Assembly (NCBI GenBank): GCA_049423385.1
Contig: JBMSQQ010000005.1
Coordinates: 1-64,000, forward strand
From: Silvanigrellaceae bacterium
GTDB lineage: Bacteria > Bdellovibrionota_B > Oligoflexia > Silvanigrellales > Silvanigrellaceae
Direction: 5' to 3'
DNA: 64,000 nucleotides
Shown here: in pieces, positions 38,662 to 63,214 of the stretch
Layout: each line of letters starts with the position of its first letter
Numbering within the stretch: position 1 is the stretch's first letter
Translations under genes and position numbers: made by a program
The notes under the pieces: generated by a model
What the model was told of the DNA's origin: nothing
The model's input: the letters and a program-made list of their open reading frames with translations, nothing else
The model's database searches: none

Positions 38662-41600
38662 TCATGGAATGCTGTAACGGCTGCACATGCGCGGGCGTGG
38701 AGTCGTGAGTTGTCCTGAATTGGTGCACGGCGAGGAACCACTGCAGACCGAAGCAGGACTCGAAACTTGACTTTTGTTCGAGGTTCCCAACTGACCGTCT
38801 GTATTTGCTCCCCAGCAGTAGACATTTCCCTCGAGTGTCATCATGCAAGTGTGAAGGTCTCCAGCTGAAATAGACATGGCAGTTGTTGTTGGAGCGGGAT
38901 CGATGATGGTTGGCGATTGTTTGCAGAAGGTGATGTTGGCGATTCCGGTTCCCGGGTTGCAATCTTCTCCGCTGGCCTGGTCGGTTGTCGTGACTTTTCC
39001 AACGCCGAGCTGCCCTGAAGTGCCCAATCCCCAGCAATAGACCTGGGAGTCCTCTGTGAGGGCGCAGGTGTGATTTGAACCAGCCGAAATTTGAACGTAC
39101 TTCAAGGCCGGGCTCGTGAGCTTGACTGGAGTGGTCGAAGAGGTGGTGTTCCCCAATCCAAGCTGTCCCACCGAGTTGTCGCCCCAGCAGTATATTTCAC
39201 CGCCTTTTGTCAGGACACAGGAGTGGTTGTCTCCGGACGTGATTTGCGACACATCCTCATTGAATCCCAGTGAGACTGGAAGGGATGAGTCGGTCGTGCT
39301 TGAATTTCCAAGTTGTCCGGAGTTGTTTTTACCCCAGCAAAAGGCTTGTGTGGTGGTGCTGGAGGATTGGAACTGCAGCGCGCATGTGTGACTCTTTCCC
39401 GCTGCCACAGAGAAGATTTTCGAATTCTGATCACTCAGGTCGCCTTTGCCAACGGCATACACTGAGCCAGAGCTTCCCGAGGACGTGTTGTTGCCGGTGC
39501 CGAGCTGACCCGAGTCGTTGTTGCCCCAGCAGTAGAGTTTTCCAAGCACGCTGCCCGAATTCGATATCGCGCAGGCGTGTGTTCCGGTTTTGCTGACGGC
39601 GATTCCGATCGGGATGTCACCTGCGGGAAATCCAACAGGGTTGTTGAATGCAGTTTGATTTCCTGCCAATCCCAATTGGCCGGAAGAATTGTTACCAACA
39701 CATCGGACCTGTGCCGTGCCCGATGCAGTTCCAAGTGCGCAGGTGAAGTTGGAACCAGATGCCAGCTGGACAAAAGTGAATCCAGCAGTTGTTTGGGTTG
39801 TTGAACTCGTTGAACTGGTTTGTGGATATGTGTACGTCGCCTGACTCAACGTGTTGGCAAGACCCAAACGACCATCACTCCGCCCCCAACATTTGCTCAC
39901 TCCATTGTCGACAAGGCAGGTGTGCAATGCGCCCGCTGAAATTGATGCATATGTTGACGAGGTGCATTGTCGACAGATTGAGGGCGTGGAGGCGTATTCG
40001 GGTTGGAGACCATCAACGGACATCTCGGACGTGTTGAATGAACCTGGAAGTGCAAACCATCGCAAATTCAATTTTTCGAGTTTTCGTTCAAATGTAAAAT
40101 TTGCAGAACTGACCGTATTGGTGATTGTGTTGCCTGTGCCGGAGCCTCCCTGTGTTGGACTCGAAAAGCTTCCAGTTGTGACAGCAAAGACAGATTTGAA
40201 TGTTGATGATGTGTCCTTTGCGGGTGTGCTTGGAATCAAAAATGAAGATGTCACGGCAGAACTGAATGAGACACTGTCGTTTGAAGAACTTATCGTTTTC
40301 GCTGCCGATGTGACGCTCAGTCCGGCGGGGGAACCGACGACGTCTTGTTGCACAACCGTGGCGGTATAGTTGAAACTGGAAATATTGCTCGAAATAGCAA
40401 AGCTTGCAGTGTTTGACACGTTGCAAGACGAACTCAAAGAAGGTTTCGACAACGCATTCAGGTTCAGCTGATAACTCGTGATCTCAATGAATTTAACAGT
40501 GTCGCTTGTGCAAGAACCGGATGCGTCGCAAGCACGCGCCTTGTATTTGCAGGTCCCGTATTCAGTGGTGGAAAATGCCTGGCTGATATTGGAACCCGTA
40601 ATTGGATTGGCGCAAGAGAAACCGCTGGATTTGTTGAAAGGCGATGAAGCATCGCGCACGAGGCTGTATGTGAGCGTCTCGCCATCGACGTCGGAAGCAC
40701 CAGTACAAGAGAGCGTCCAGTTTCCTGTTCGACCAGCCTTGACGATGTCGGTTGTTGAGTTTGAATCGCATATGACCGTACCTGTTGGCGGGTCATTTTG
40801 CGCGGTGATGTTCAACTGAAATGTTTTGGATGCAGACAGACCTCCGGGATCTGTAACTGTGAACGTGATGTTCAAGATACCGTTCGCATTCGCGTTCGGA
40901 GAAATTGTTCCGGTACAGTTTGGCCAGGTTCCGCTCCAGGTGACCCTCGAGCTTCCCGAGACAAGAGTTGAATTTCCGGTTGTGTAAGACAAACGGTCTG
41001 ACGTGCAGACATACTGGGACGCATTCCCTGCGTTTTTGTCGATGTCATCAACGACGAATGCAACTGCGACAGAGGAGTCTTCATTGACCGTTTGGGAATT
41101 GATGGTCGAAGTGATTTCGGGAGCATGATTGGAGCCAAGAACTGTCAATTTGAAGGTCTGCTCCGCCGTCGCAGCCGGATTTCCATCGTTGAACGAAAAC
41201 TTGATGTGGATGGTACCGGACTGCAGATTCTTTGGTGTCAACGTCGCGGAACAGTAGGGCCAGGTTCCACCCCAGGCAACAGCTCCTGTTGGCTCAACAA
41301 GGCTGGAATTGTCACCCGCCAATGTTGACACTGAATAACTCAAGTTCGGGGAATTGCATTCCAATGGCCCATCAATATCAGTCATCTTGAATTCTATGAA
41401 TTTTGCTGCCGCCTCGCTTGTGGTTTGATCTGCAATCGGCTCCATTTCCGGAAAGTCATTGACCGGACGAATATTCAAGACAACGGTTTGTTCTGAAGAA
41501 CACTTGTTTATCCCCGGATCATTGTCACAAACTTTGTATGAAAACGAATCGATGCCATTGAGGTTCGGTTTGGGCTTGTAGGTGCCGTATGCAGGCGAGC

Positions 41601-42381
41601 CCAAACTGGGAACATTAACAGGAAACGTAAAATCCCCGAGGGTAGGACTCGCGGTCCATTCATATTTCAACGCATGATTGATACGCTTTGTATTGTCGTC
41701 GAATGCTGCCATCAGAATGCTTGTTCCGATGGAATCTTCGTCCAATGTCTCCGACGCGGCACCATTGGAACTGATGTATGGTTCAGTGTTTGTAGAGTTC
41801 ACCGTGACTGAAAATGACGATTTGCTGACTTTTGAATCGTCCGATGGATCCTTGAGGCTCAACGTGATTGTTGCTGGAGTTTGGCTCGCATATTTCGTTT
41901 TTATGCTGATTCCACATTCAGTCGTTTCACCTCCTGTGACTGTTGCGTCACCCCAGGTCTTGCTTTCCACAGTTCCGCTGGAAGTTGTGCTGATGTAAAC
42001 AGCAGCGTCGTTGCTGCTGGATGGAACGACGTTCATGCATTTCACGGAATCATCGAAATCAAAAATACGAAAGCTTATGGGGTTGAGTTGGGTATCTTCG
42101 TTCGCCGTCTGATCGCCAATCTGCATGATCAGCGGAGCATTGTTTGGCCGCTCGGGAGTTGGTGCTGGAGTTGGAGTTGGAGTTGCTGCCGTGATTGCCT
42201 TTGGAGTTGTCCTTGGTGAAGATGTGGAAATAGGAGTTGGGATATCGACAGAATTTGTTTCGGCGGGCGTCTCGGATTGAACTTCGTCCTCTTCCAATGG
42301 CGGTGCGGCGCGAAAGCATGCGCTGACGCACAAGAGCATCAGCATGGAAATGGTCGATTTTTTTACTGAACTTGCCCGCAT
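38662..42381 (-). CDS. Surface lipoprotein with Ig/cadherin-like repeats and a C-terminal RCC1-like beta-propeller
   Basis: CVSAC lipobox; NEDT/NEDS Ig repeats; repeated AGxxHTC...YCWGxNxxGQLG. Confidence 0.9.
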   Translation of the reverse strand: MRASSVKKSTISMLMLLCVSACFRAAPPLEEDEVQSETPAETNSVDIPTPISTSSPRTTPKAITAATPTPTPAPTPERPNNAPLIMQIGDQTANEDTQLNPISFRIFDFDDSVKCMNVVPSSSNDAAVYISTTSSGTVESKTWGDATVTGGETTECGISIKTKYASQTPATITLSLKDPSDDSKVSKSSFSVTVNSTNTEPYISSNGAASETLDEDSIGTSILMAAFDDNTKRINHALKYEWTASPTLGDFTFPVNVPSLGSPAYGTYKPKPNLNGIDSFSYKVCDNDPGINKCSSEQTVVLNIRPVNDFPEMEPIADQTTSEAAAKFIEFKMTDIDGPLECNSPNLSYSVSTLAGDNSSLVEPTGAVAWGGTWPYCSATLTPKNLQSGTIHIKFSFNDGNPAATAEQTFKLTVLGSNHAPEITSTINSQTVNEDSSVAVAFVVDDIDKNAGNASQYVCTSDRLSYTTGNSTLVSGSSRVTWSGTWPNCTGTISPNANANGILNITFTVTDPGGLSASKTFQLNITAQNDPPTGTVICDSNSTTDIVKAGRTGNWTLSCTGASDVDGETLTYSLVRDASSPFNKSSGFSCANPITGSNISQAFSTTEYGTCKYKARACDASGSCTSDTVKFIEITSYQLNLNALSKPSLSSSCNVSNTASFAISSNISSFNYTATVVQQDVVGSPAGLSVTSAAKTISSSNDSVSFSSAVTSSFLIPSTPAKDTSSTFKSVFAVTTGSFSSPTQGGSGTGNTITNTVSSANFTFERKLEKLNLRWFALPGSFNTSEMSVDGLQPEYASTPSICRQCTSSTYASISAGALHTCLVDNGVSKCWGRSDGRLGLANTLSQATYTYPQTSSTSSTTQTTAGFTFVQLASGSNFTCALGTASGTAQVRCVGNNSSGQLGLAGNQTAFNNPVGFPAGDIPIGIAVSKTGTHACAISNSGSVLGKLYCWGNNDSGQLGTGNNTSSGSSGSVYAVGKGDLSDQNSKIFSVAAGKSHTCALQFQSSSTTTQAFCWGKNNSGQLGNSSTTDSSLPVSLGFNEDVSQITSGDNHSCVLTKGGEIYCWGDNSVGQLGLGNTTSSTTPVKLTSPALKYVQISAGSNHTCALTEDSQVYCWGLGTSGQLGVGKVTTTDQASGEDCNPGTGIANITFCKQSPTIIDPAPTTTAMSISAGDLHTCMMTLEGNVYCWGANTDGQLGTSNKSQVSSPASVCSGSSPCTNSGQLTTPRPRMCSRYSIP

Positions 42382-42406
42382 CTTGTCGCTGCCTTTCCAT
42401 AAAAAC

Positions 42407-42434
42407 AGATCGGCAGAAAGCTTCAAGAATTTGA
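42407..42434 (-). promoter_or_regulatory. FliA/sigma28-like promoter TCAA-N16-GCCGATCT
   Basis: Minus strand tcaa attcttgaagctttct gccgatct, 25 bp before ATG 42381. Confidence 0.65.
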
Positions 42435-43263: not shown

Positions 43264-43749
43264 TCATGCGACGGAGGCGAACGAAACAGAGCCGGTCAAC
43301 TCATCGGCCGTAAGAATCAAGCTGGGTTCCACGAGAATAACGACCCTGTCAGTCAGCTTTCCAATCCCAATCAGGCAATGAGTGTGACTGTGTCCACCGA
43401 TATCAGGAGAGGGCTCGATGTTGTTGATTTTGAAGTCGAGCACCTCACGGACGGTATCCACGATAAGGCCAACCTTGCGTGACCAGATGTCGACGATGAT
43501 GATGCAGGTCTCCCTGTTGTACTCGGTAGTGGGCAGGGAAAATTTTCGACGAAGATCCATGACCGGCAATACTTTCCCACGCAGGTTGATGATTCCCTTC
43601 ATGTAGACCGGCAAATTGGGAACATGGGTGATCTCACCCAGACCGATGATCTCCGAAACAGTTCGAATCGGGACTGCGTAGGTCTCACTGGCAAGCTGAA
43701 AACTCAGATATCTTCCTTCTTCAGCTGTTTTGCGCATACTTCGTTCCAC
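43264..43749 (-). CDS. cheW: Chemotaxis coupling protein CheW (divergent from cheR)
   Basis: YLSFQL...ITHVPNLPVYMKGIINLRGKVLPVMDL; GAGGAGG before GTG 43749. Confidence 0.93.
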   Translation of the reverse strand: MERSMRKTAEEGRYLSFQLASETYAVPIRTVSEIIGLGEITHVPNLPVYMKGIINLRGKVLPVMDLRRKFSLPTTEYNRETCIIIVDIWSRKVGLIVDTVREVLDFKINNIEPSPDIGGHSHTHCLIGIGKLTDRVVILVEPSLILTADELTGSVSFASVA

Positions 43750-43896
43750 CGGATGACCTCCTCGTTCACTTCGCATGGACGTATCGGCAAATCTGAGAAA
43801 ATTTTCCGTGTCGTCTTTGGACTCAGGTCGGGATTTTGACATGATTTTTTTCCAACAGACACCGATATCTCCAAAGACACCATAGGAGGTTTGCGC

Positions 43897-44787
43897 GTGT
43901 CGGCCAATCGTGAGGAGATGACACTCAAACAGCTTGAAGAAGACGTCGTCGGATTCGGGAGAATTGCCGAACTGTTGCGGCGTGATGCCGGTATCAACTT
44001 GAGCTTGTCTGCAAAGAACAAGACACTGCTTGCGAGCCGAATGTTCAAGATCATGCCACAGCTCGGACTGCAGAGTTACCAGGATTTGTATTTGGCATTG
44101 AATTCTGGACAGCAACAGATCCGTGAAGCATTCATCAGTGCGATAACCACAAATACAACTCATTTTTTTCGAGAGCCAGCACATTTTTCGGCTTTGGGAA
44201 GTCTTGTTTGCGAACTTCGCAACAGGCAAGACATCAAGAGATCTCGTGAAATCAGAATCTGGTGCGCAGCCTGCAGCACCGGTGAAGAAGCGTATTCGAT
44301 CGCCATGATTGCGCGTAAGCATCTGCCAGTCACGGATAACTGGAAAATCAGGATCTTGGCATCCGACATTGATCGTGAGGTGTTGTCTGTTGCTGCCCGT
44401 GGGGTTTATCCGGCGACAGCGCTCGAAAGTGTGCCACAGGACTGCAGACAGCAGTTTTTTGATCGAGGTACCGGCAATTCTGCCGAATTTGTCAGGGTCA
44501 AGCGTGAGATTCGTGATTTGGTGACATTCGCCCAATTCAACCTGATGACCACGAGTTATCCATTCCAGGGCAAATTCGACATTATATTTTGCAGGAATGT
44601 GATGATCTATTTTGATCGTCCTGAAATCCACATGACGCTTGAAAAGCTGACATCGGTTTTGGCCGTTGGTGGATTCCTGTTCCTGGGTCATTCGGAAACA
44701 ATCATGGGCGGATCGCCCTCGCTCAAATCGCGGGCAGCAGCGGTCTATGAACGACTTCCGCCTGGCCGAAAAGGAGAAGCGGCATGA
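43897..44787 (+). CDS. cheR: Chemotaxis methyltransferase CheR
   Basis: TTNTTHFFRE, WCAACSTGEEAYS, IFCRNVMIYFD, LGHSE. Confidence 0.96.
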   Translation: MSANREEMTLKQLEEDVVGFGRIAELLRRDAGINLSLSAKNKTLLASRMFKIMPQLGLQSYQDLYLALNSGQQQIREAFISAITTNTTHFFREPAHFSALGSLVCELRNRQDIKRSREIRIWCAACSTGEEAYSIAMIARKHLPVTDNWKIRILASDIDREVLSVAARGVYPATALESVPQDCRQQFFDRGTGNSAEFVRVKREIRDLVTFAQFNLMTTSYPFQGKFDIIFCRNVMIYFDRPEIHMTLEKLTSVLAVGGFLFLGHSETIMGGSPSLKSRAAAVYERLPPGRKGEAA

Positions 44788-46928
44788 ACAGCAATTTCAA
44801 AGTCAACGAGTATCTTTTGGTGGTGGAGGATGACTTTGAACTCCGCGAAGCGATTTGCGAAACGCTTGATGCGGCAGGATGTCCCATCCATGCCGTGGCG
44901 ACCGCAGAGGATGCCTTGACGTTTGTTCGCAACAACACGTGTTTCGCGATTGTCAGCGATTTCAGAATGCCGGGAATGAATGGAATTCAGCTTTGCAAAC
45001 TGGTCAAGGAAGAGCTTCCGCGAGTCAAGTTTGTGATTCTGACGGGATATGCAGACAAGCAAACAGTGCTTGATGGATTTCGCGTCGGAATCGATGATTT
45101 GCTTGAGAAACCACAGGACCTCGTGCGTCTCAGGGAAATGGCGGATGGTTTTGTCTCCAAGCGTGCTGCTGAGGTTTTGCAGGAACAGGAAGAGCTGAAA
45201 GTCATCAGAAAGATTTTCTGTGATGAGGCCAATGATCTTCTCAGGGACATCGAGAGTTACATCTTCAAGCTTGAGGACTCTTCTGGCCAGTCTGATGTTG
45301 TCGATGTTCTATTCAGGAAAGCACACACCTTGAAAGGCTCTGCAGGAGCCTTTCAAGGCGCAGAAAAAATTGGCGCAGTGACCCACGCTTACGAAAATTT
45401 GCTGCAAGCAATCAAGAAGGGGAAATTGGTTCCTTCCCAGGCATTGACCCAGGTACTTCTGCAGGCAGCCGACGTGATCAAAAACCTCGTCAAGGATTTC
45501 GAAAATTTCAAAGAGACCAGAATCAATCTTCAGCCCTTTATCGACGCACTCAATCAGTGGACAGAAGGTCGTGCCGGCGGAATGGTTCAGTCCGCACAGG
45601 ATGATTCGAGCCGAGGGATTGAGTCCCGGACGGATATTCCACTCATCAATATTGCTGCTCCGGAACAGCTGTCTGCCCTGGGGTCTGGACATGAGGCAAC
45701 CACGACTTCCGAAGAGGAAGAGGATGGAATTCTTGTCAGCATCGACAAATTGAACTCGTTCATGGAACTTTCAGGTGAACTGGTTGTTCTCAAGAATGCA
45801 TATCATGCGACCATCAAACATGTTTCCAAGCTTTCGATACCTTCGGAGCAAAAGCAGCGCCTTGAGGAGATGAATCAATCCCTGGACAAAATCTCGGAAC
45901 AGATACAGGGCCAAATCATGGAAGTCCGAAAGGTGCAGTTGAAAGTCGCTTTTCAGAAGTTCCCCAGAATCGTTCGGCAGGCCTCGCAGGATTTGAGAAA
46001 ATTTGTCCGACTGGAGATGAGTGGAATCGATCTTGGCGTCGACAAAAGTATTGCAAAATCGCTTTCAAGTTCGCTTGTTCACGTTTTGAGGAATTCGGTT
46101 GATCATGGGATAGAAAATGCTCCCGCCCGCCTCGAGGCTGGAAAGCCCGAGCAGGGTACAATTCGAATTGTTGCCAACCAGGTTGGTGAAAGGATTCTCA
46201 TCACGATTGAGGATGATGGCGCTGGTATCGATCCCGATGTCATCCGTAGAAAGGCCGTTGAAAAGGGAGTTGTCGATCGGGAGACTGCCTACACCATGAG
46301 TGCTGCCGAAGCGCTTGATCTGATCTTCAAGGCTGGATTTTCGACTGCTGAAAAGGTTTCGAATGTTTCCGGCCGTGGTGTTGGAATGGATGTGGTCAGA
46401 ACCGAAATTTCCAAATTTGGCGGCACGGTGACTGTGGATTCCACAGCAAAGAAGGGAACAATCATCACGTTGATGATTCCGGTCCCAAAGACGGTGCTGG
46501 TGGAAAATACGCTTCTTGCAGAGAGCGGCGGACATCAATTGGTGATTCCATTGATAAGTATTTCGAAAATCGCTCCTGTCAAGGATTTGATACTTTCAAA
46601 GGTCGAAGGTCGCATGACGTGTCAGCATGACGGCGTGACAATCCCCTTGGGTGACTATCGCAGCTTCATTGAATCTCCGTTGCACGGCAGTCCGCTCGAG
46701 AAAACCGATTTTTCGCCCGAATCTCTCGTGTTGATCATTTCACACAAAGGACATTCGCTTGCACTTGTCGTCGACAAGGTGATTGACCAGATGGAAGCTG
46801 TGGTTCGCCCGTTTGACAATGTGGTTGAGCGGCTTCCTGGTTTCAAGGGAACGAGTCTACTGGATTCTGAAAGAGTGGCTTTTGTTTTGGATGCCGAATC
46901 CCTTGTCACTGAAGCCTACGCGAGCTGA
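44784..46928 (+). CDS. cheA: CheA histidine kinase with N-terminal receiver domain (REC-Hpt-dimer-HATPase-CheW)
   Basis: VVEDD...SDFRMPG...LEKP REC; FRKAHTLKG Hpt; HVLRNSVDHG; SGRGVGMDVV. Confidence 0.93.
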   Translation: MNSNFKVNEYLLVVEDDFELREAICETLDAAGCPIHAVATAEDALTFVRNNTCFAIVSDFRMPGMNGIQLCKLVKEELPRVKFVILTGYADKQTVLDGFRVGIDDLLEKPQDLVRLREMADGFVSKRAAEVLQEQEELKVIRKIFCDEANDLLRDIESYIFKLEDSSGQSDVVDVLFRKAHTLKGSAGAFQGAEKIGAVTHAYENLLQAIKKGKLVPSQALTQVLLQAADVIKNLVKDFENFKETRINLQPFIDALNQWTEGRAGGMVQSAQDDSSRGIESRTDIPLINIAAPEQLSALGSGHEATTTSEEEEDGILVSIDKLNSFMELSGELVVLKNAYHATIKHVSKLSIPSEQKQRLEEMNQSLDKISEQIQGQIMEVRKVQLKVAFQKFPRIVRQASQDLRKFVRLEMSGIDLGVDKSIAKSLSSSLVHVLRNSVDHGIENAPARLEAGKPEQGTIRIVANQVGERILITIEDDGAGIDPDVIRRKAVEKGVVDRETAYTMSAAEALDLIFKAGFSTAEKVSNVSGRGVGMDVVRTEISKFGGTVTVDSTAKKGTIITLMIPVPKTVLVENTLLAESGGHQLVIPLISISKIAPVKDLILSKVEGRMTCQHDGVTIPLGDYRSFIESPLHGSPLEKTDFSPESLVLIISHKGHSLALVVDKVIDQMEAVVRPFDNVVERLPGFKGTSLLDSERVAFVLDAESLVTEAYAS

Positions 46929-46937
46929 GGAGTTATT

Positions 46938-47390
46938 ATGCTGAATATTGTTCAGGATGCCCTCGATGAAAAAAAATCAAAAGGCCCGCAAAAGGGCTAT
47001 CTCTTGATTCAGGTGGGTGAGCAAAAATTTGGAATTCCAATGGATCAGGTGGTGGAAGTTCTCGAGTCGCGCCGCTGGAATCCACTGCCAGTGAGACGAA
47101 AGAATCTGCTGGGCGTCGTCAATCTGCGCGGCATCGTTTTTACCATTTATGATTTGGCGGCATTGCTCGGCAAAGGCGCCACCACGTCGGCCGAGTCGGG
47201 ACAAGGGTGTATCATTGTGGTCAATGACAATCGCAGGAAATTCGGTCTGTGGGTCGAGAAGATGCTTTATGTGCAAGAATTCCCGCTCGAGGATTTGCAT
47301 ACTCTCGATGATTCGCAGTTGCTTGTGAGTCATCTTTGCGTTGTCGAGAATGAATCCATTCTGATGATGGACGTCAAAAGAGTCGCCTGA
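46938..47390 (+). CDS. cheW: CheW
   Basis: LLGVVNLRGIVFTIYDL. Confidence 0.9.
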   Translation: MLNIVQDALDEKKSKGPQKGYLLIQVGEQKFGIPMDQVVEVLESRRWNPLPVRRKNLLGVVNLRGIVFTIYDLAALLGKGATTSAESGQGCIIVVNDNRRKFGLWVEKMLYVQEFPLEDLHTLDDSQLLVSHLCVVENESILMMDVKRVA

Positions 47391-48953
47391 ATGAAGACAC
47401 ATTATCTTTTTCCCGGCCAGCTCGTGGTTTATCAAGAGCCCTGCATGGTGACCACAATTCTCGGGTCATGTGTCGCAATCGCCATGTTCGATCCCGTCGA
47501 GCGCATTGCAGGATTGAATCATTTTTTGCTTCCGAATCCTTCAACAACAGGCGGTGCGTCGAGCCCGAGGTATGGAAGTGTTTCAACTCCAATGATGCTT
47601 GATCAGTTGCTCGCTGCCGGTGCCGTTCCTGAGAGGTTGCAGGCCAAGATTTTTGGTGGCGCAAGAGTTCTCGACGACCTGAACCTTGGCGAAAGCATTG
47701 GCCGACAAAACGTCGAATTCGCAAAATCCTTTCTGGCTTCGAGGAGAATACCTGTTGTTGAAGAACAAACAGGTGGCAACGTGGGGCGGAAAATCATTCT
47801 CGACACATCCAACTTCAACGTGACCCATCAATTGATGGGTGGACATTCGAAAGTATCCCTTTCAGGCGTGGAATCGTCTCTGTTGACAAGAACTGTCCGC
47901 GTCGTGGTTGTTGATGATTCCGCTTCCGTAAGGACAGTTTTCAGCCGTGTTCTTGATCAGTCTGGAAGGGTGAAGGTTGTCGGTGCTGCCCGTGATGCCT
48001 TCGAGGCGCGGGAAGTCATTGTGAAGGAAAATCCGGATGTCATTTTGCTGGATATCGAAATGCCGGGAATGTCGGGAGTCAAGTTCCTCGAAAAGCTGAT
48101 GCAGCATTTTCCCATTCCCACAATCATGGTTTCATCCTTGAATCCCGAAGATGATGCAGCCGTGCGCGCTCTTGAAATCGGAGCTCTCGAATTTGTCCAC
48201 AAGCCGGATCAATTTGATCCCGCAACATTGAGATTTTTTGCAGAGCATCTCGTGCAAAAAGTTGTTGCAGCCGCAAGTTCCGCCGACCGCGTGAAGTCTG
48301 CAAAGCGGGCACCTGGAAATGTTTCTCATGCTTCGGCATCAAATGCATCGGCCCTGTCGGGAGGCATCGAGATGATTCTGGTCGGAGGAAATGGTGGAGC
48401 CCACTCCGAACTTGAGCAGTTTTTGTCCTCGTTGCCGAACGACACTCCACCTGTGTTGGTGGCTGTAAGTTCGGTATCTGAGCATCTGAAAGTTTTCATC
48501 AACAAATGGAAAGTCAATTGTCGCGTGCAAATCAAGGAGGCGGTCGACGGCCTTGTTCCGATGCGTGGCTGTGTGTACATTTCCCCCGCGCGTCGGCACC
48601 TTTCCCTGGAAAACAGGGGAGGGCAAACTGTGATGTGTCTTCGCGATGGACCACCTGTTTGCTTGCAGACACCATCTTCAGAAGTATTGTTTGATTCCGC
48701 TTCAAAATCGCTTTCAGAAAAGCAATTTCAAGGTTTGGTTGCCGTCCTGTTGAGTGGATTCGGTTCCGATGGTGTTCAAGCCTTGCTTCGTCTCCGTGAA
48801 AAAGGGACGAGAACTCTTGTCACTCATCCCGAATCGAGCGTGTTCGCATTTGCCCCAAAAGCCGCAATTGAGGCTGGTGCCGCAGATGAAGTGCTTTTGC
48901 CCGAGGAATTTGCGAAGGCGCTGATGAAGCTCAGAAGTCGTGCGGCGGTGTAA
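47391..48953 (+). CDS. CheD-REC-CheB-like fusion with a degenerate methylesterase domain
   Basis: TILGSCVA and NHFLLP (CheD); VVDD...LLDIEMPG...HKP (REC); esterase has GGNGG and AVSSV instead of STGG and QHM. Confidence 0.88.
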   Translation: MKTHYLFPGQLVVYQEPCMVTTILGSCVAIAMFDPVERIAGLNHFLLPNPSTTGGASSPRYGSVSTPMMLDQLLAAGAVPERLQAKIFGGARVLDDLNLGESIGRQNVEFAKSFLASRRIPVVEEQTGGNVGRKIILDTSNFNVTHQLMGGHSKVSLSGVESSLLTRTVRVVVVDDSASVRTVFSRVLDQSGRVKVVGAARDAFEAREVIVKENPDVILLDIEMPGMSGVKFLEKLMQHFPIPTIMVSSLNPEDDAAVRALEIGALEFVHKPDQFDPATLRFFAEHLVQKVVAAASSADRVKSAKRAPGNVSHASASNASALSGGIEMILVGGNGGAHSELEQFLSSLPNDTPPVLVAVSSVSEHLKVFINKWKVNCRVQIKEAVDGLVPMRGCVYISPARRHLSLENRGGQTVMCLRDGPPVCLQTPSSEVLFDSASKSLSEKQFQGLVAVLLSGFGSDGVQALLRLREKGTRTLVTHPESSVFAFAPKAAIEAGAADEVLLPEEFAKALMKLRSRAAV

Positions 48954-48956
48954 TCA

Positions 48957-50003
48957 ATGGGACAGCCAACGGGACAGAAAATCAGGATTGTTGTTGTGGA
49001 TGACTCGATAGTCTCACGCAGCTGGATAGCCAACGCTCTCGCTGCCGATCCTGTTTTTGAAATTGTCGCAGTTGCAACGAGCTCGAAACTCGCATTTGAG
49101 GTTGTTGTAAGTCAGGCGCCACAGATCTTGATATTGAATGGAGAGTCCGAGCGGTTGAATGGCCTGGCTCTTTTGGAAAAGGTCATGATGCGGTTTCCCA
49201 CGCGGACCATCGTTGTCAGCGAATTTTGTGGAAGTTCATCCAAAGCAGGGTTGAAGGCCTTGTCATTCGGTGCTGTTGACGTTTTTTCACGTGTCGAGAT
49301 TTCTTCCGGTCGGAGGATCAATGTGGATCCGGCCAAATTTCGGGCGTGCATCACTTCTGCAATTCGGGCGAGACTTCCGATGGCAAACTCCTCAATTACA
49401 GTTGCCCACACTCCCACGGTGGTTTTGGCAATTGCTGCATCAACAGGAGGTCCGGATGCGCTTCAGGCCCTGTTGAGCCGCCTTCCGGCAAACATTCCGC
49501 CAATGCTGATCGTTCAACACATGCCTGCGTTCTACACGCGAAGCTTTGCCCGGCGACTGAATGAAGAGTGTTCTTTTGAAGTTCGCGAGGCGCGCGACGG
49601 AGATTCACTTCAGGAGGGTCTTGCCCTGATTGCTCCGGGTGGATTCCATATGACCGTGGAAAAAAATTCGAACCGATTTTCCATTGCATTGGACCAGTCT
49701 CCGCCTTTGCACGGAGTCAGGCCTGCAGCTGACCCTCTTTTTGAGTCGATTGCCAGGAATTTTGGGGCTCGGGCAATTGGTGTTGTCCTGACAGGCATGG
49801 GGCGAGACGGAGCTGAAGGATTGGCAAAAATGCGCAAGTCCGGGAGTTTCAATATTGCCCAGGACGAACAAAGCAGCGTCGTTTTTGGGATGGCCCGCGA
49901 GGCCGTGGCCGCAGGAGCTGTGCAAATTGTCTGTCCTCTCGATAAGATAGCCGGGACGATAATCGCCGAATTGGCAAGAAGAACTGTTGCAAAGGTCGGC
50001 TGA
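48957..50003 (+). CDS. cheB: CheB methylesterase with a degenerate receiver domain
   Basis: ASTGG, VQHMP and LTGMGRDG intact; REC has ILILNGE (Asp->Asn) and FSR in place of KP. Confidence 0.92.
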   Translation: MGQPTGQKIRIVVVDDSIVSRSWIANALAADPVFEIVAVATSSKLAFEVVVSQAPQILILNGESERLNGLALLEKVMMRFPTRTIVVSEFCGSSSKAGLKALSFGAVDVFSRVEISSGRRINVDPAKFRACITSAIRARLPMANSSITVAHTPTVVLAIAASTGGPDALQALLSRLPANIPPMLIVQHMPAFYTRSFARRLNEECSFEVREARDGDSLQEGLALIAPGGFHMTVEKNSNRFSIALDQSPPLHGVRPAADPLFESIARNFGARAIGVVLTGMGRDGAEGLAKMRKSGSFNIAQDEQSSVVFGMAREAVAAGAVQIVCPLDKIAGTIIAELARRTVAKVG

Positions 50004-56864: not shown

Positions 56865-59474
56865 ATGGAATTGACTCAAGATATGCTCAGCGAGCTGAAG
56901 GCGGAAAGCATCGAGCTCGTTGAACGCTTTGCCGGCATCTGGATGCTCATCAACACCTCTGTTGAGCAGGGCAAGGCCGTTGCGCGCGAAAATATCGACG
57001 AATTGTTCCGAACGCTTCATACCCTCAAAGGTTTGTCCGAGATTATCAACAATCCGCGCCTCGTTTCTGCCTTGCATCTGATGGAAGATCGCTTGACCCA
57101 GGTGCGAGAAGGCAACTCCACCCTCGACGCCGAGGATATGGCGACCCTGGTTGAAGCAGAACTGACACTTGAAAAGATTTTCAATGCCGATTTTCGTTCG
57201 AGCGATGATGTTCTTCTTTCAACCTTGGAACATCATGCGCAGATGTTTTGTGCGCGGTCATTGAACACTCGGCAATCCGGGTCAAACAGACCCTTGGTAA
57301 ACCAAACAAGACTTGAATTGACCTCTGATGAAGCCAAAAACTGGGAAAAATATTGTTCCCGCGAGGAGTTTCTTTTTGCTCTGACGACTTTGTCGGCGAA
57401 TGTTGACGATTTCCGTGGAAGAATCGTTCCAATTGGTGATATTATTGTCGAACGAAGCAGCGGTGAATCATGCTTGTTCGTATTTGCTGCTGAACTCGAT
57501 CAATCCCTTGTCGAGGCGATTGTCGAACAGCCGGTGAAGTTGTTGCGCAAAGACCTTCAAGCATTGCTCGCGCTTGAATTTTCCACGACTTCCACCCAAT
57601 CGGCAACCGAGGAGTCTAAATCAAAAGAACTCATCCCGGTTGGCCAAACGGATAATGTTGATCAACTGCTTGAGGCAGAACCGTCCTCAGTGTTTGAAAA
57701 TGGAAAAAGCAATAAAGATGTTTCTGGCGAGCGTGCAGAGTCGCAGAATCTGGCGTCGGCTGATCCCGAGATGGTCAAGGATTTTCTGAGCAATGCACGT
57801 GAACTTCTGGACTCGCTGACAAACTCTCTTCTTGATCTCGAAAGCAATCCATCCGATCCGACAACCATAGAATTCATCTTCAGGGCCGCGCATACCATCA
57901 AGGGCACTGCAGGGATGCTCGGATTCACGACCATCGAAACTCTTTGCCATGCACTTGAAAACACCTTCGATCGCATCCGGAAGGGAAATCTGGCTGCGAC
58001 TCCGGTCTTGGTCGACAATCTACTTGTTGGATGGGATTTGGTGCGAAGTTTGTTCGACTTGCTTGAACAGGGCAAACCTCCTTTCCTTGAAATCACCAAT
58101 TTTCTTGCGCAGCTATCTGCAGCGGAACGTGGAGTGTCGAAAACTTCCACGGTTCCCCGTGAAGCCGTTGCCAAGCAAGTTTCCGCTCAAAACCCGACCC
58201 AGACGCAATCCAAAAACGATACGCAGGGGACAATACGCGTCGATCTCAAGCGGCTTGACAACCTCGTCAATCTAGTTGGCGAGCTTGTGATTGATCGTAC
58301 CCGATTTGCAAGAATCGAGGAGGCAATGCGCACACGCGGTGCAAGCGCCGACTTGAGTCATCAGATGGCCGAAAGTGTGCTGCTTTTTGGTCGGCATATG
58401 AATGAAGTGCAAAACATCATCATGAAAGTTCGAATGGTTGCCATTGGCACGGTGTTCTACAAGTTCGCCAGGATGGTTCGGGATTTGTCCCGACAGGTTG
58501 GCAAGGAAGTTGAGCTCGTCATTGAAGGCGGAGAAACAGAACTGGATAAAACGCTCGTTGAAGAAATCGGCGATCCTCTAGTTCATCTGATCAGAAACAG
58601 TATTGACCATGGAATTGAACCTCCTGAACTGCGCGAAAGCCTGGGCAAGTCGAGAAAAGGAATTGTCCGGCTTTCGGCGAGCCAGCAAGGCAACAGTATT
58701 GCAATTTCCGTCAAGGATGACGGCAAGGGACTCGATGTTGAACGGATTCGTGCCAAAGCGATAAAAAATGGACTATTGAGCGAACATGAAAATCCACCGG
58801 TGAAAGAGATATTCAACCTGATTTTTGAACCTGGATTTTCGACTGCCGAGGCGGTCACGAATATTTCGGGTCGCGGTGTTGGAATGGATGTTGTCAAAAA
58901 GAATATTCAAAAGCTGAAAGGCGTGATTGAGCTGGATTCAACACCTGGTCAGGGGACGAACACAGTCATCAAGCTGCCCATCACTCTCGCTATTGTGCCG
59001 AGCTTGATGGTGGAGTCCAGCGGAGAGACGTATGCCATCCCGATTGTAAACGTCATCGAAAGCATCCGCATCTCGCCTTCCGATATTCAGCGCATGGGTG
59101 CTTCTCAATTTGTAAAATTGCGCGAGCAGGTCATTCCACTTGTCAATTTTGCGGATGTTCTTGGAATCCATCACATCGAAAACGACTTCTGGTATCGGGA
59201 GTCAGCAAGAAACTCAACATTGCAGCGCCGCAGGGAGCGTTTGGTGTTCGTCGTCATTGGCGTGGGACATGAGCGTATCGGATTGATTGTCGATCGTTTG
59301 ATTGGCCAACAGGAAATCGTCATCAAGCCCCTGGGCCGATTGTTGCGCGACCGCTCCGGATTGGCGGGTGGTTGCTTGTTGGGCGACGGGCGAGTTGCAT
59401 TGGTTTTGGACGTGGCTGAGGTCTTCAGCAACGAGGCTATCAACAGGGGGCTGCATGCTCGAAGAGCTTCGTAA
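56865..59474 (+). CDS. cheA: CheA histidine kinase with two Hpt domains
   Basis: FRTLHTLKG and FRAAHTIKG; HLIRNSIDHG; SGRGVGMDVV; C-terminal CheW-like domain. Confidence 0.93.
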   Translation: MELTQDMLSELKAESIELVERFAGIWMLINTSVEQGKAVARENIDELFRTLHTLKGLSEIINNPRLVSALHLMEDRLTQVREGNSTLDAEDMATLVEAELTLEKIFNADFRSSDDVLLSTLEHHAQMFCARSLNTRQSGSNRPLVNQTRLELTSDEAKNWEKYCSREEFLFALTTLSANVDDFRGRIVPIGDIIVERSSGESCLFVFAAELDQSLVEAIVEQPVKLLRKDLQALLALEFSTTSTQSATEESKSKELIPVGQTDNVDQLLEAEPSSVFENGKSNKDVSGERAESQNLASADPEMVKDFLSNARELLDSLTNSLLDLESNPSDPTTIEFIFRAAHTIKGTAGMLGFTTIETLCHALENTFDRIRKGNLAATPVLVDNLLVGWDLVRSLFDLLEQGKPPFLEITNFLAQLSAAERGVSKTSTVPREAVAKQVSAQNPTQTQSKNDTQGTIRVDLKRLDNLVNLVGELVIDRTRFARIEEAMRTRGASADLSHQMAESVLLFGRHMNEVQNIIMKVRMVAIGTVFYKFARMVRDLSRQVGKEVELVIEGGETELDKTLVEEIGDPLVHLIRNSIDHGIEPPELRESLGKSRKGIVRLSASQQGNSIAISVKDDGKGLDVERIRAKAIKNGLLSEHENPPVKEIFNLIFEPGFSTAEAVTNISGRGVGMDVVKKNIQKLKGVIELDSTPGQGTNTVIKLPITLAIVPSLMVESSGETYAIPIVNVIESIRISPSDIQRMGASQFVKLREQVIPLVNFADVLGIHHIENDFWYRESARNSTLQRRRERLVFVVIGVGHERIGLIVDRLIGQQEIVIKPLGRLLRDRSGLAGGCLLGDGRVALVLDVAEVFSNEAINRGLHARRAS

Positions 59475-60000
59475 GAAACTCGAAGCACAATTGGCTTCGA
59501 ATGTGGATGAACTGCCGGTCGCCTTGAACCGAGGTCGGCAGTTTCTGGCATGCAGGGTTGCAGAACAGGAACTTCTTGTGGCCGTTGATGATATTCGTGA
59601 AATCATCATGCCGCTGCCGATTGCCTTTTTGCCCAAGGGGCATGGGCAGGTGGAAGGCGTCATTGCTGTGCGTGGCGAGATTATGCCCGTTTTGAACTTG
59701 CGAAGAATGCTGTCCTTCAGCAAGGGGCAATTGACCCCGATGACTCGCATTTTGATTGTCTGTCCCGAAGAGGACGATTTCGGACTCATTGTCGACGAGA
59801 TTGTCGAGTTTGTCTGGCTCGAGGACAAGGATTTGGATCCGGTTGCGCAGAGCTATCTTTCCAATGAATTCAGGGTCGTGTCGGGGCTGGCGAAAAATTC
59901 CAGCGCGGTGAGGCCGATCCTGGATGTCAGACTTATTCTGAATTCCGTATTTTCGAAGGGAGATCGTGATGAAAAACACATCGTTCAGACTGCATCTTGA
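59455..60000 (+). CDS. cheW: CheW
   Basis: VEGVIAVRGEIMPVLNL, FGLIVDEI; ATG 59455 overlaps the cheA end. Confidence 0.9.
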   Translation: MLEELRKKLEAQLASNVDELPVALNRGRQFLACRVAEQELLVAVDDIREIIMPLPIAFLPKGHGQVEGVIAVRGEIMPVLNLRRMLSFSKGQLTPMTRILIVCPEEDDFGLIVDEIVEFVWLEDKDLDPVAQSYLSNEFRVVSGLAKNSSAVRPILDVRLILNSVFSKGDRDEKHIVQTAS

Positions 60001-60361
60001 GCAGGCGATTTTTTCACGTCTTTCAGCACTGATTGTGGGAGTCTGGTGTTCCAGTCTCTTTGTATCGTGCGTTCCCCAGTCTCGAGCACCCACCAAAATC
60101 AAGGTTCTCAGCTTGAACCCTGATGAGTACGTTGGCTCGCGGGTCCACTTGAGCGGCCGGGTCCAGGGGGTGGGGCCCGCGGATTCATATCTATTGGTTG
60201 AAGATGATACCGGCAGGATCATGGTCGGAACCGAGCAGATTGCCCAAAAGACCAGCTGTCCCTCCAATTCAAAAATTGAGCTCATCGGCACCTTGCGGCG
60301 CCTGAAAAGTGTTCCTCAGCCTTACTTCTCGATGGATTCTTTGTTAGAATGCACACCTTGA
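59969..60361 (+). CDS. Small probable OB-fold lipoprotein
   Basis: FVSC lipobox-like; VHLSGRV...YLLVEDDTGRIMV OB-like pattern. Confidence 0.55.
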   Translation: MKNTSFRLHLEQAIFSRLSALIVGVWCSSLFVSCVPQSRAPTKIKVLSLNPDEYVGSRVHLSGRVQGVGPADSYLLVEDDTGRIMVGTEQIAQKTSCPSNSKIELIGTLRRLKSVPQPYFSMDSLLECTP

Positions 60362-60385: not shown

Positions 60386-62128
60386 ATGAAACATCGTTTT
60401 GTGTGGGTTGTCTTTCTTGGACTGCTCACCGGCTGCAAATACATGACGTTTCTTCGCAAGCAATCGCTGACCTTGGATGCACCCAAGGAGATGGAACTCG
60501 TTGTCTATAAACAGATTGGCAAACCCAACGAAAAAGTCATGAGTCCGGTGGGACTGATTCGTGGTGGGGAAAGCATCGAGCTCGAAGCGGGTGATTACAT
60601 CGTTGCCAACGAGTGTTCAGGATACGAATTCAAACAATCGAAAGATCGACCGACAAAAATTCCAGTGCGTCGCTTGACCCTGACTTTGCACGGCGAGTCG
60701 ACCGACAGCGAGCCAATCGACAGCAACAACCCTCAGCAAACAAAAGAGGCCTCAAACCCCGAACCGGCCAAAGAAGACGAGACGGTGGTTGAACCGAAAA
60801 CTGCAACTGCGCCGGATTCCGGGCTCAAAGCCGAAGATTCCACGCAGGTTCAGGTCAATACGCCTCCGGAAAGAGGAATTGTTCACACCATGTGTGTTGA
60901 TCCCCTCGACCAGCAAAGGAATCAGTGGACCCGACGCCGCGAGTTCGACATTTTGCCTGGCACAACCGAGATGCGCATTGGTGGCCGACTGATCAAACTC
61001 GAAAATCATGGTGAAACCAGCGATCCCATCAAGCTTGACCTCTATCCGGTGGCAATCAACTCCAGCTTTCCCGAAATTCAAGCCAGATTTTATTTGAATC
61101 CGGAAGAGAAGGAACCAAAGAATGAAGCCTCGGTGGTTGCCGTTGAGGCCAATGCTCCCACATGGCTGTTGCCTGGAAATTACACCCTGGAGGTCAACGG
61201 AACCCGCAGAAAAGTGACTGTTGAACAGGGCGCCCGGACAGATATTTCTGTTGGTGTTTTGCGGGTCGAAATGCCGGAAAACTTTCCGTTGGACGATAGG
61301 CTCAAGGCGGGTGGTCAGCCCGTGTTTGTGTATCTTGATTTCGGTGCGCTGCTGAACATGGATACCGACTACGTTGTTTTTCCGGGCAGCTACAATGTGT
61401 CAATTGAGGGTTCGGAAGTTCAGGATTTGTTCCAGGTCGAAGGCGGAGAAAAGACCGTGGTGAAAACATTCGCGGCCCGGGTCGATGCGCCTCCTTGTCC
61501 TGACAACCTGAAATCCTGCAAAGGTGCGCCTCGCGTGACAATTCACCGCGAACAAAAACCCTATGCCTTGATGATTGTCGAACCACGATTGCCTTTCCTT
61601 CTGTTGGAAGGTTCTTACGAATACGGAGTCGAGGGATTGCGTGGAATCAAGCGCAGCCTGCAGAAGAAATCCGGAAATCTTGCCGGTGAACCGCTTGCTC
61701 GTGTGCGCATCAAGTGGGATGTCCGACAGGCGCAAGGACGATATCGGACCGACTTGGTCCGAATTGAAAGCCGCGGACAAAACACCTTCGGCCGTTCGCT
61801 CGATCTTCTCTTCCACAGGCCCGATGAAGTTTACGTGCCTGCGGGGAATTATGACCTTACCTATTTCGTGGGAGACCCGGTGCTCGAACGCAGCAAGTCG
61901 CGGCTTGCATTGCATCTGGAGCCAGGTCAAACGCGCGAAGTTGTGGTTCCCATCTTCGTCGAAAAAGTCAACCGAACAGATGATAATCAGTCATCATCTC
62001 CGCTCAAGAGCGCCGGACTTCAGGACAATGCTGGAGGAAAGAATTCATCGGCCAATAAAAAAGAAACCGAAGCTGCCGATGGCGCTCCGGTTGTTTTGCC
62101 GCGAAGCCTCACGCCATTGCGGCGGTGA
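60386..62128 (+). CDS. Hypothetical lipoprotein with repeated small beta-sandwich (PEGA-like) modules
   Basis: LLTGC lipobox; repeated LEAGDY / LLPGNY / VFPGSY / LLEGSY / VPAGNY. Confidence 0.7.
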   Translation: MKHRFVWVVFLGLLTGCKYMTFLRKQSLTLDAPKEMELVVYKQIGKPNEKVMSPVGLIRGGESIELEAGDYIVANECSGYEFKQSKDRPTKIPVRRLTLTLHGESTDSEPIDSNNPQQTKEASNPEPAKEDETVVEPKTATAPDSGLKAEDSTQVQVNTPPERGIVHTMCVDPLDQQRNQWTRRREFDILPGTTEMRIGGRLIKLENHGETSDPIKLDLYPVAINSSFPEIQARFYLNPEEKEPKNEASVVAVEANAPTWLLPGNYTLEVNGTRRKVTVEQGARTDISVGVLRVEMPENFPLDDRLKAGGQPVFVYLDFGALLNMDTDYVVFPGSYNVSIEGSEVQDLFQVEGGEKTVVKTFAARVDAPPCPDNLKSCKGAPRVTIHREQKPYALMIVEPRLPFLLLEGSYEYGVEGLRGIKRSLQKKSGNLAGEPLARVRIKWDVRQAQGRYRTDLVRIESRGQNTFGRSLDLLFHRPDEVYVPAGNYDLTYFVGDPVLERSKSRLALHLEPGQTREVVVPIFVEKVNRTDDNQSSSPLKSAGLQDNAGGKNSSANKKETEAADGAPVVLPRSLTPLRR

Positions 62129-63214
62129 TTATTTTTTACATTTCATATAGCGGTCGAGAATCTCAGAAACACTCTTGTTCAGATTGTTTGACTTGACCTG
62201 GATGTAGTCGTCGCGGACTTCATTTGATTGCGGTATTGCAAGCAAAGCACTCCAATAGGATGAGAATGTGCTGTGTTCCTCTTTGCCCCAATCCATTCGG
62301 TTGAACAAATCGGAAAGCGAGGATTTTGCAGCAGCGTTCTGAACCTCGTCGTTGATGTCAGCGCCGTTTGAATCGTAGTACGAAACCAAGACCACACGTG
62401 CGTCCGTTCCAAGTGCTTTGCGGGCGGCCTTGATGGCGCTTGGAGTGCGGTCGGTCGGCAATCCATCGGTGATGAAAAGCATCAATGCCTGACGTGTGTC
62501 ACCCGATTTCTTTTCAGTCACAAGCAGCGAATTGGCGGCGCTGAAGGCTGTAACGTAGGGAGTCAGGCCTTTCGCATCGTGTGTAAATTTGAGCATATCC
62601 CAGATTTTCTGATTGAAAGCGGTGTCACTCGCGATTTGCGAGATGTCTGTCATTTTGGACGGCAAACCGGTATTTCCACCATTGTAGAAGACAGGTTCCT
62701 TCATTTCTTCTTCAGTGGGTGTGTCGCTCGATGCCTTGGGAAAGAGTGCAACACCAATGTCGATGCCTTGGTAGTTTGCATTTGCCTGTCTGGAGGCAAT
62801 ACCTGCTTTTTGAAGTTTCAAAATTGATTTGTAAACGGTGTATTGACGATAGGTGTAGATGTTTGACGTGTTCAATCCAGCGAAATCGGCATCCTTCAGT
62901 AGATACTTGTCATCGTCAAAAGTTTTGACCGCGTCCGAGCCCACGTAATCTGGTGCGCGTTGAACATCGTTTGGTTTGGCACCATTGGAACCTGTATTGT
63001 CGACAACGAACGCAACTCGCAAAGGTCGAAACTCATCTGGGCAGGCAACCAGTTCTTTGGCAAGGGCTCTGGCTCCAAAAGGTGTTGGAACTGTGTTGGC
63101 GCTTTTGAACTCAGTCTCTTTTTCTGAGCTGCAGGAGATTGTTCCAACTGCAATCCCGGCCAATGTGAGCAGCAATGTGCCATTGAACCAAGTCAGCGAA
63201 TTCATTTGCGCCAT
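62129..63214 (-). CDS. VWA-domain lipoprotein
   Basis: TISC lipobox; MIDAS DNTGS...LTP...FITDG. Confidence 0.85.
   Translation of the reverse strand: MAQMNSLTWFNGTLLLTLAGIAVGTISCSSEKETEFKSANTVPTPFGARALAKELVACPDEFRPLRVAFVVDNTGSNGAKPNDVQRAPDYVGSDAVKTFDDDKYLLKDADFAGLNTSNIYTYRQYTVYKSILKLQKAGIASRQANANYQGIDIGVALFPKASSDTPTEEEMKEPVFYNGGNTGLPSKMTDISQIASDTAFNQKIWDMLKFTHDAKGLTPYVTAFSAANSLLVTEKKSGDTRQALMLFITDGLPTDRTPSAIKAARKALGTDARVVLVSYYDSNGADINDEVQNAAAKSSLSDLFNRMDWGKEEHSTFSSYWSALLAIPQSNEVRDDYIQVKSNNLNKSVSEILDRYMKCKK

Follow-up and report, generated by a model that had tools for sequence, protein, structure and literature searches.

In the textbook account of chemotactic adaptation, feedback runs through phosphorylation of the methylesterase CheB. 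The canonical enzyme, represented by the Salmonella and Escherichia coli structures 1a2o and 6ymz, consists of a receiver domain (REC) followed by a CheB_methylest fold. Two adjacent genes of a Silvanigrellaceae bacterium depart from this design. They are located on the forward (+) strand of a 64,000-nucleotide stretch of DNA (GenBank assembly GCA_049423385.1, contig JBMSQQ010000005.1, positions 1 to 64,000) that is referred to as the window. Gene 1 (47391..48953) encodes a 520-residue fusion of CheD, a receiver, and a CheB-like domain that has lost its catalytic triad, as defined by its open reading frame (ORF), Pfam matches, alignments, and a structural model. Gene 2 (48957..50003) encodes a 348-residue CheB with a pseudo-receiver and a predicted active esterase, as defined by Pfam, NCBIfam, and alignments. 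Both proteins share with canonical CheB the order of receiver and CheB_methylest fold; of the canonical features, gene 2 has the Ser/His/Asp triad, and gene 1 has the phospho-acceptor residues and, in the model, a CheB-like closed packing. Unlike canonical CheB, neither protein joins a phosphorylatable receiver to a live esterase, and gene 1 adds an N-terminal CheD. The reading that we favor, with a rough probability of 0.55, is that the receiver of the fusion takes up feedback from the phosphorylated kinase CheA (CheA~P) and thereby gates either CheD or the binding of receptors, and that gene 2 demethylates without CheB phosphorylation.

A second system for comparison is the CheC/CheD/CheY~P branch of Bacillus subtilis and Thermotoga maritima (2f9z). 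CheD binds receptors, and CheY-P strengthens the binding between CheC and CheD, according to PMC3513319. The fusion resembles this branch in the Thr/Cys/His residues of its CheD and in the proposed control of CheD availability by a phosphorylated receiver. It differs in that the receiver is covalently fused to CheD and in that, in our proposal, a dead CheB domain takes the place where CheC would stand. CheC (PF04509), which was detected in control genomes, had no match in the 90.6%-complete assembly of the window. As no CheC-family partner was found, the system in the window is not a member of the CheC/CheD/CheY-P class but may work alike.

CheB forms that lack a receiver are represented by the CheBc truncation of E. 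coli and presumably by the CheB of Campylobacter jejuni, for which a literature search turned up no supporting passage. Compared with these, the genus of the window harbors receiver-less, Asn-type, and canonical CheBs side by side, each in genomes with the fusion, and the receiver-less and Asn-type forms directly adjoin it. The N-terminal domain of gene 2 is most like the aspartate-less receivers (ALRs) or pseudo-receivers (PMC4395418, PMC12632262), which are characterized by a receiver fold without the phosphorylated Asp. Asn makes up 16% of the substitutions at this site, as given in PMC4395418. The terms “CheB” and “methylesterase” have no occurrence in the main text of either paper. A search of the available literature, which took in passages of PMC2829493, PMC12546842, PMC10767990, and PMC2577667, brought up neither a CheD-REC-CheB fusion nor a pseudo-CheB. 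The component parts are known; the fusion family is real and conserved. Bd2829, titled “CheD,” appears in the attack-phase proteome of Bdellovibrio bacteriovorus as given in PMC12546842 and may be the fusion.

The residues of gene 1 were assigned by alignment to the solved CheB structures 1a2o_A and 6ymz_A. Pfam places CheD at residues 46-145 (83.9 bits), Response_reg at 171-273 (80.5 bits), and CheB_methylest at 330-511 (112.7 bits). The CheD deamidase domain (residues 1-150, 47391..47840) resembles T. maritima CheD (2f9z_C, Foldseek template modeling score relative to the target, TMt, 0.85) and has T22, C27, and H44 in place, which we take to be the CheD catalytic residues. The domain lies far above the PF03975 cut-off of 25 bits. 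All NCBIfam CheD equivalogs remain under their cut-offs (best 119 versus 223), which is expected because CheD is a domain inside a fusion. The receiver (residues 168-285, 47892..48245) harbors the acidic pair D175/D176, the phospho-acceptor D221 (Asp56 in CheB), S248, and K271, so that the whole set of a phosphorylatable receiver is present. In the following pseudo-esterase (residues 326-512, 48366..48926), which was delimited by alignment to CheB and by its fold match, the nucleophile Ser164 is replaced by N334 (codon 48390-48392; GGNGGA versus GASTGG) and His190 by S360 (codon 48468-48470), and Asp286 is kept as D460 (codon 48768-48770). The domain is a CheB_methylest member by PF01339 and lacks the Ser-His-Asp triad. 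Gene 1 scores 241.2 bits on the full-length CheB model NF001965, under the cut-off of 293, and together with the three substituted or retained positions this argues against filing it as an active CheB. The initial annotation had read gene 1 from the sequence as an intact-looking CheD and receiver joined to an esterase without Ser and His, and every one of these residues is borne out by the alignments.

The AlphaFold2 (AF2) model of gene 1 reaches a predicted local distance difference test (pLDDT) value of 84.4 and a predicted template modeling score (pTM) of 0.82. In a Foldseek comparison, the modeled pseudo-esterase matches the CheB catalytic domains 1chd and 3sft with TMt values of 0.87 and 0.91 and root-mean-square deviations (rmsd) of 1.9 Å and 1.8 Å. 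The receiver and pseudo-esterase of the model jointly superpose on closed full-length CheB (TMt 0.83-0.86 for 6ymz and 0.79 for 1a2o, rmsd 4.1-5.5 Å). The dead domain of the fusion has retained both its CheB fold and the motifs that surround the former active site.

The three Pfam domains are present in all of the 120 best database relatives of gene 1 that were aligned, among them proteins named by NCBI as B. bacteriovorus and several Bdellovibrio species with 42-45% identity. The position of Ser164 is Asn in 120/120 and that of Asp286 is Asp in 120/120. The His190 position is mostly Ser (114/120), with Ala in three sequences, Gly in two, and Pro in one. A canonical residue at the nucleophile of gene 1, as had been proposed to be looked for in relatives, is therefore found in none of them. 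D221, S248, and K271 are kept throughout, the whole receiver set in 118-120 of the 120, the CheD Cys in 119, and the CheD His in all. Sequencing error or strain-specific decay, which had also been considered for gene 1, is rejected by this conservation. When the dead domain alone was used as a query, the 150 best representatives at 50% identity comprised 125 sequences with Ser/His/Asp, 21 with Asn, and four that are otherwise degenerate. Fifteen of the Asn-type representatives span 507-545 residues, and the other six are shorter and perhaps fragments; by these sequences, Asn-type CheB domains appear tied to the CheD-REC-CheB architecture. The ratio of nonsynonymous to synonymous substitution rates (dN/dS) was 0.040 for CheD, 0.046 for the receiver, 0.148 for the linker, and 0.031 for the pseudo-esterase in L004-L005, the sole unsaturated pair of gene 1 loci (dS was undefined or above 1.5 in nine of ten pairs). 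Taken together, the family conservation, the purifying selection, and the kept fold argue that the dead domain is a maintained pseudoenzyme and not a product of decay. Judged by sequence, gene 1 belongs to an old and strongly conserved Bdellovibrionota family (Bdellovibrio and Oligoflexia) with a predicted catalytically dead CheB-like domain. Public annotations name the fusion “CheB” or “CheD,” labels that overstate its function as an esterase.

The strict conservation of a dead active site also brings up a different role for the fusion, in which the cleft binds the methylation sites of receptors as a phospho-gated decoy or reader. When opened, it would shield these sites from, or hand them to, the free esterase and CheR, and CheD would be secondary. 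In line with this, the invariant residues of the dead domain are located at the motifs lining the CheB active site (GGNxG, PP...S, QxPS, and GxGxDG), all 120 relatives have Asn in place of the nucleophile, and the fold is kept in the model at an rmsd of 1.8-1.9 Å. Simple shielding, however, would amount to positive feedback under the sign convention of E. coli. The catalytic residues of CheD are, moreover, equally invariant, so that CheD is not a passenger. We consider such a reader function with a secondary CheD unlikely.

The origin of the fusion was followed in 131 genomes of the phylum-level set to which the window belongs, from which 30 loci were fetched (genomes, contigs, loci, and proteins carry our handles G, C, L, and P). 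Eighteen of the 30 loci harbor an Asn-type fusion; the window's genus contributes 11 of its 13 genomes, and two other families contribute seven genomes. At five loci (L022 and L024-L027, same class as the window), CheD, REC, and CheB make up one ORF in which Ser, His, and Asp are all kept. These active fusions share the domain order with the family of gene 1 and differ by the triad that the latter has lost; L022 and L024 are preceded by cheR and not by cheA-cheW. Three further loci (L019-L021, window's family) carry separate adjacent cheD and cheB genes. In a wider scan with the family alignment as a query against one genome per species, 80 loci were kept. CheD and the esterase were found in one ORF at two of these, both from Bdellovibrio. 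In the other loci having both, CheD and an active-scoring esterase are encoded by different, mostly adjacent ORFs in many phyla. Separate genes in the order cheD-then-cheB (L032-L110) were observed in Bacteroidota, Burkholderiales, Alteromonadales, Rhizobiales, Nitrospirota, Acidobacteriota, and Clostridium. This gene order is a likely substrate for the fusion event. The order cheA-cheW-fusion is common to the window and Bdellovibrio sp. HCB288, whose complete genome has one CheB besides the fusion, a canonical one.

In a quick IQ-TREE tree of the REC and esterase parts (57 rows), all Asn-type fusions form one clade (Shimodaira–Hasegawa-like approximate likelihood ratio test, SH-aLRT, 100) on a long branch from every active CheB, and the active fusions form a separate clade (SH-aLRT 98). 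Gene 2 is placed in an ordinary CheB clade (SH-aLRT 100), whose 12 members come from loci of the genus and from close relatives in the database. This clade is sister (90) to the cheB that follows the separate cheD in L019-L021. The placement shows that genes 1 and 2 are not recent duplicates, and a recent duplication is ruled out as their origin. The initial annotation had interpreted the pair as reciprocal subfunctionalization after duplication. The complementary pattern itself, an intact receiver with a dead esterase beside a dead receiver with a live esterase, stands, but the history is not supported. The two genes fall into separate clades, the pseudo-esterase is phylum-wide, and receiver decay is restricted to one sub-lineage within a single genus. 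A wide gap in time separates the two losses, and most fusion genomes keep a canonical phosphorylatable CheB (HCB288, loci L012-L016, L006, and L007).

Some further observations concern fusions in this set. In G089, the Asn-type fusion L017 appears to be accompanied by another match of fusion length. L023 (G112:C275) is a strongly degenerate fusion copy of 415 residues at a contig end, with other residues at the CheD His motif, the acidic pair, the phospho-Asp, the Lys, and even at the Asn position; it may be a decaying paralogue, and G112 is 70% complete. Many CheB matches of this class are located in open frames of 620-860 residues, such as L030 with 757 residues and a non-CheD N terminus, which suggests frequent fusion of CheB to further modules in this set of genomes.

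Gene 2 matches Response_reg (PF00072) with 30.2 bits, exactly the cut-off of 30.2, and CheB_methylest (PF01339) with 209.9 bits against a cut-off of 24. It exceeds the NCBIfam cut-off for full-length CheB (NF001965, 322 versus 293 bits). In the methylesterase domain (residues 156-340, 49422..49976), S162, H188, and D284 align with Ser164, His190, and Asp286 of 1a2o_A, and the domain is predicted to be active. The pseudo-receiver (residues 8-118, 48978..49310) keeps D15/D16. Asp56 is substituted with N61 (ILILNGE, codon 49137-49139) and the conserved Lys with R112 (codon 49290-49292). The domain is thereby set apart from phosphorylatable receivers and classed with the pseudo-receivers or ALRs, as a receiver fold without the phospho-Asp. 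From these substitutions, it is predicted to be unable to take a phosphoryl group in the usual way. The full triad and the loss of the phospho-Asp and Lys had been recognized in the initial annotation and are confirmed here. The public gene call for gene 2 (P0121) spans 335 residues and holds the esterase Pfam domain alone. The orthologues P0122 and P0123 support the ATG at 48957, by which the first strand of the receiver is restored.

The AF2 model of gene 2 folds both domains well and leaves their mutual arrangement uncertain (pTM 0.60). The pseudo-receiver has pLDDT values of about 85-91 and a REC fold with a TMt of 0.84 to 3t8y_A, and the esterase matches 1chd and 3sft with TMt values of 0.92 and 0.94 at 0.9 Å and 1.0 Å rmsd. 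The full model is unlike closed CheB (TMt 0.53-0.56, rmsd about 16 Å), which gives a weak hint that the autoinhibitory packing may be lost.

Asn-Gly is the sequence most prone to spontaneous deamidation. In the window protein, N61 is followed by G62 (49137-49142); P0122 and P0123 have Asn-Val, so the dipeptide is not conserved. On a bolder reading, deamidation might turn this Asn into a phospho-acceptor that is otherwise latent. A return of Asn-type receivers to Asp by this route is raised as an idea in PMC4395418.

Asn at the phospho-Asp position is found in three of 25 aligned gene 2 relatives, namely the window protein, P0122, and P0123, the last of which was added from the database. The window receiver is 63-65% identical to the other two. 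Further degenerate receivers among the database relatives are P0135 (DE, N, R) and P0137 (AE), and six more receiver-less forms are of metagenomic origin. Within the 13 genomes of the genus, in which the window's genome is G000, the neighbor of the fusion takes on different states. The search for a fusion beside an Asp-less CheB that the initial annotation had suggested returned G000 and G111, both with Asn/Arg. The adjacent CheB is canonical in G106 and G116, and in G108, G109, and G115 it is receiver-less, with 208 residues and a 4-nt overlap with the fusion stop (esterase-only orthologues measure 205-208 residues overall). G110, G113, and G114 have no CheB between the fusion and the DAHP (3-deoxy-D-arabino-heptulosonate 7-phosphate) synthase gene, and in G117 the contig ends, so that adjacency is not readable. 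A separate canonical CheB of 347 residues is encoded elsewhere in G109, G110, G113, and G117. G107 (93% complete) has no CheB domain, G114 (86% complete) has the fusion only, and G112 has a fragment and the degenerate copy L023.

On a tree of the esterase alone, the state changed between phosphorylatable and non-phosphorylatable at least three times. The Asn lineage shares 41-44% receiver identity and 65-71% esterase identity with canonical relatives, whereas canonical pairs at a like esterase distance share 68-81% in the receiver; by these identities, the receiver has diverged about 2-fold faster in the Asn lineage. All gene 2 pairs are saturated or near-saturated in dS. Between the window and G111, the pseudo-receiver has a dN of 0.249 at a dS of 1.94, and the resulting dN/dS of about 0.13 compares with about 0.12 for the esterase and 0.48 for the linker, all read at near-saturated dS. 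Neutral decay, which had been named as a possible explanation for the dead domains, finds no support in either the pseudo-esterase or the pseudo-receiver. The alignments and trees indicate that receiver decay in gene 2 is recent, recurrent, and confined to a sub-lineage of one genus, and that the split-function pair of the window is probably a late, lineage-specific addition to the fusion family. Sequencing error or strain-specific decay is largely rejected for gene 2 by the Asn state in diverged relatives and by purifying selection.

The chemosensory pathway of the genus might also simply be degenerating without a new circuit, with the receiver changes of gene 2 as a step toward loss, or a canonical CheB might have escaped assembly. 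G107 without a CheB domain, G114 with the fusion only, the degenerate L023 of G112, and the canonical second CheB of four sister genomes speak for such explanations. They are countered by purifying selection on every measured domain of genes 1 and 2, among which the linkers alone are more relaxed, by an Asn state that is common to three diverged sequences, and by intact ORFs that are closely packed in an operon. In addition, neither of the two candidate syntenic sites has a CheB. Together, these explanations are very unlikely. A search of the assembly identified CheB domains in genes 1 and 2 only and CheD in gene 1 only, besides one CheR, three CheAs, of which two are in the window and one is on contig C25, and six methyl-accepting chemotaxis proteins. 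On this count, no methylesterase predicted to be catalytically competent other than gene 2 turned up in the assembly, which is 90.6% complete. A second CheB was sought in G000 via the flanking genes of the sister genomes; the best matches (55% and 45% identity, contigs C16 and C19) have non-CheB neighbors, which gives moderate support to its absence.

The tight coupling of the two genes, which are separated by 3 nt in the window and whose counterparts in L008-L010 (fusion and esterase-only partner) share a 4-nt stop/start overlap, would fit yet another arrangement. The fusion could bind gene 2 or its receiver-less orthologue, and its phosphorylated receiver would switch the partner esterase on or off in trans. 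The constrained pseudo-receiver of gene 2 could then serve as a docking surface. Such a heteromer had been offered as an alternative in the initial annotation, but the adjacency that it builds on is not conserved. No CheB is located within 5 kb of the fusion at two Bdellovibrio loci, the genomes G110, G113, and G114 have none between the fusion and the DAHP synthase, the neighboring CheB is on the opposite strand in L012-L016, and the fusion family is far older in the tree than receiver decay. Regulation through such a heteromer is improbable.

In the mechanism that we favor, CheA~P would transfer its signal to the receiver of the fusion, and not to CheB, as the entry into the adaptation system. 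The unphosphorylated receiver would pack on the CheB-like domain, as in CheB. Phosphorylation would undo this packing and alter the access of the attached CheD to the receptors or its departure from them. The CheB-like domain itself would serve as a noncatalytic module for receptor binding or targeting that is gated by phosphorylation. The fusion would in this way be a one-protein (cis) analogue of the Bacillus CheC/CheD/CheY~P branch in a genome without detectable CheC, and demethylation by gene 2 would run free of phospho-control. The last point matches the sister species in which the same gene has lost its receiver entirely.

Several points weigh against this mechanism. A canonical CheB beside the fusion in Bdellovibrio and in L012-L016 implies that the fusion is not a general substitute for phospho-control of CheB. 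The link between fusion and receiver decay comes from a single clade at the genus level, with few events that are not independent of one another. The constraint on the pseudo-receiver suggests that it probably has a role, which a merely constitutive esterase fails to explain. As dS is saturated nearly everywhere, the selection estimates come down to one gene 1 pair and one near-saturated gene 2 pair. A second canonical CheB could be hidden, given those of G109, G110, G113, and G117 and the completeness of 90.6%; the synteny check is moderate because the flank matches are 55% and 45% identical and on different contigs.

A broader version can be put forward tentatively for a Bdellovibrionota branch with the arrangement cheA-cheW-(CheD-REC-pseudoCheB). 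In this branch, a phospho-gated deamidase might read the kinase feedback, with the dead CheB as a reader of receptor sites or targeting module. The receiver of the adjoining CheB would become dispensable and be repeatedly disabled (Asn/Arg) or deleted, which would leave methylation-based adaptation with an unregulated esterase.

In the window, genes 1 and 2 form the end of a closely packed five-gene operon on the + strand (cheR, cheA, cheW, gene 1, and gene 2). It starts with cheR (43891..44787, Pfam CheR 199.6 bits), which has a 4-nt overlap with the start of cheA. The CheA (44784..46928, by Pfam) consists of an N-terminal receiver followed by Hpt, dimerization, HATPase, and CheW domains. The TGA stop of the following cheW (46938..47390, Pfam CheW 83.6 bits) directly adjoins the start codon ATG of gene 1, and 3 nt separate the TAA of gene 1 from gene 2. 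Downstream of gene 2, a class-II DAHP synthase gene begins at 50055. None of the ORFs within the che operon is of cheY size. A further cheW (43264..43737, - strand) is divergent from the operon; it encodes 157 residues from a Met after AGGAGG, and its Pfam CheW score of 123.3 bits was obtained on an over-long ORF of 475 residues. In Bdellovibrio sp. HCB288, the CheA upstream of the fusion (L031:2513-4240) has no receiver, and Pfam reports no H-kinase_dim domain in it. A second CheA of 869 residues (56865-59474, +) has two Hpt stretches, a dimerization domain, HATPase, and CheW. The nearby ORFs 59440-60291, 60386-62128, and 62129-63214 have no Pfam match, and this CheA appears isolated from other che genes. 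A predicted lipoprotein of 1254 residues (38662-42426, -), which combines cadherin/immunoglobulin-like repeats with an RCC1 beta-propeller at its C terminus, seems to have no relation to the che operon.

The findings suggest that sensory feedback in this organism departs from the textbook wiring. In the fusion, which has been kept across an entire phylum, the phospho-switch is coupled to another enzyme of receptor modification and to a preserved dead esterase. Canonical, Asp-less, and receiver-less CheBs within one genus provide a natural experiment on the importance of CheB phospho-control. The fusion itself is a candidate pseudoenzyme, be it a reader, tether, or autoinhibitor, whose role is accessible in a tractable Bdellovibrio.

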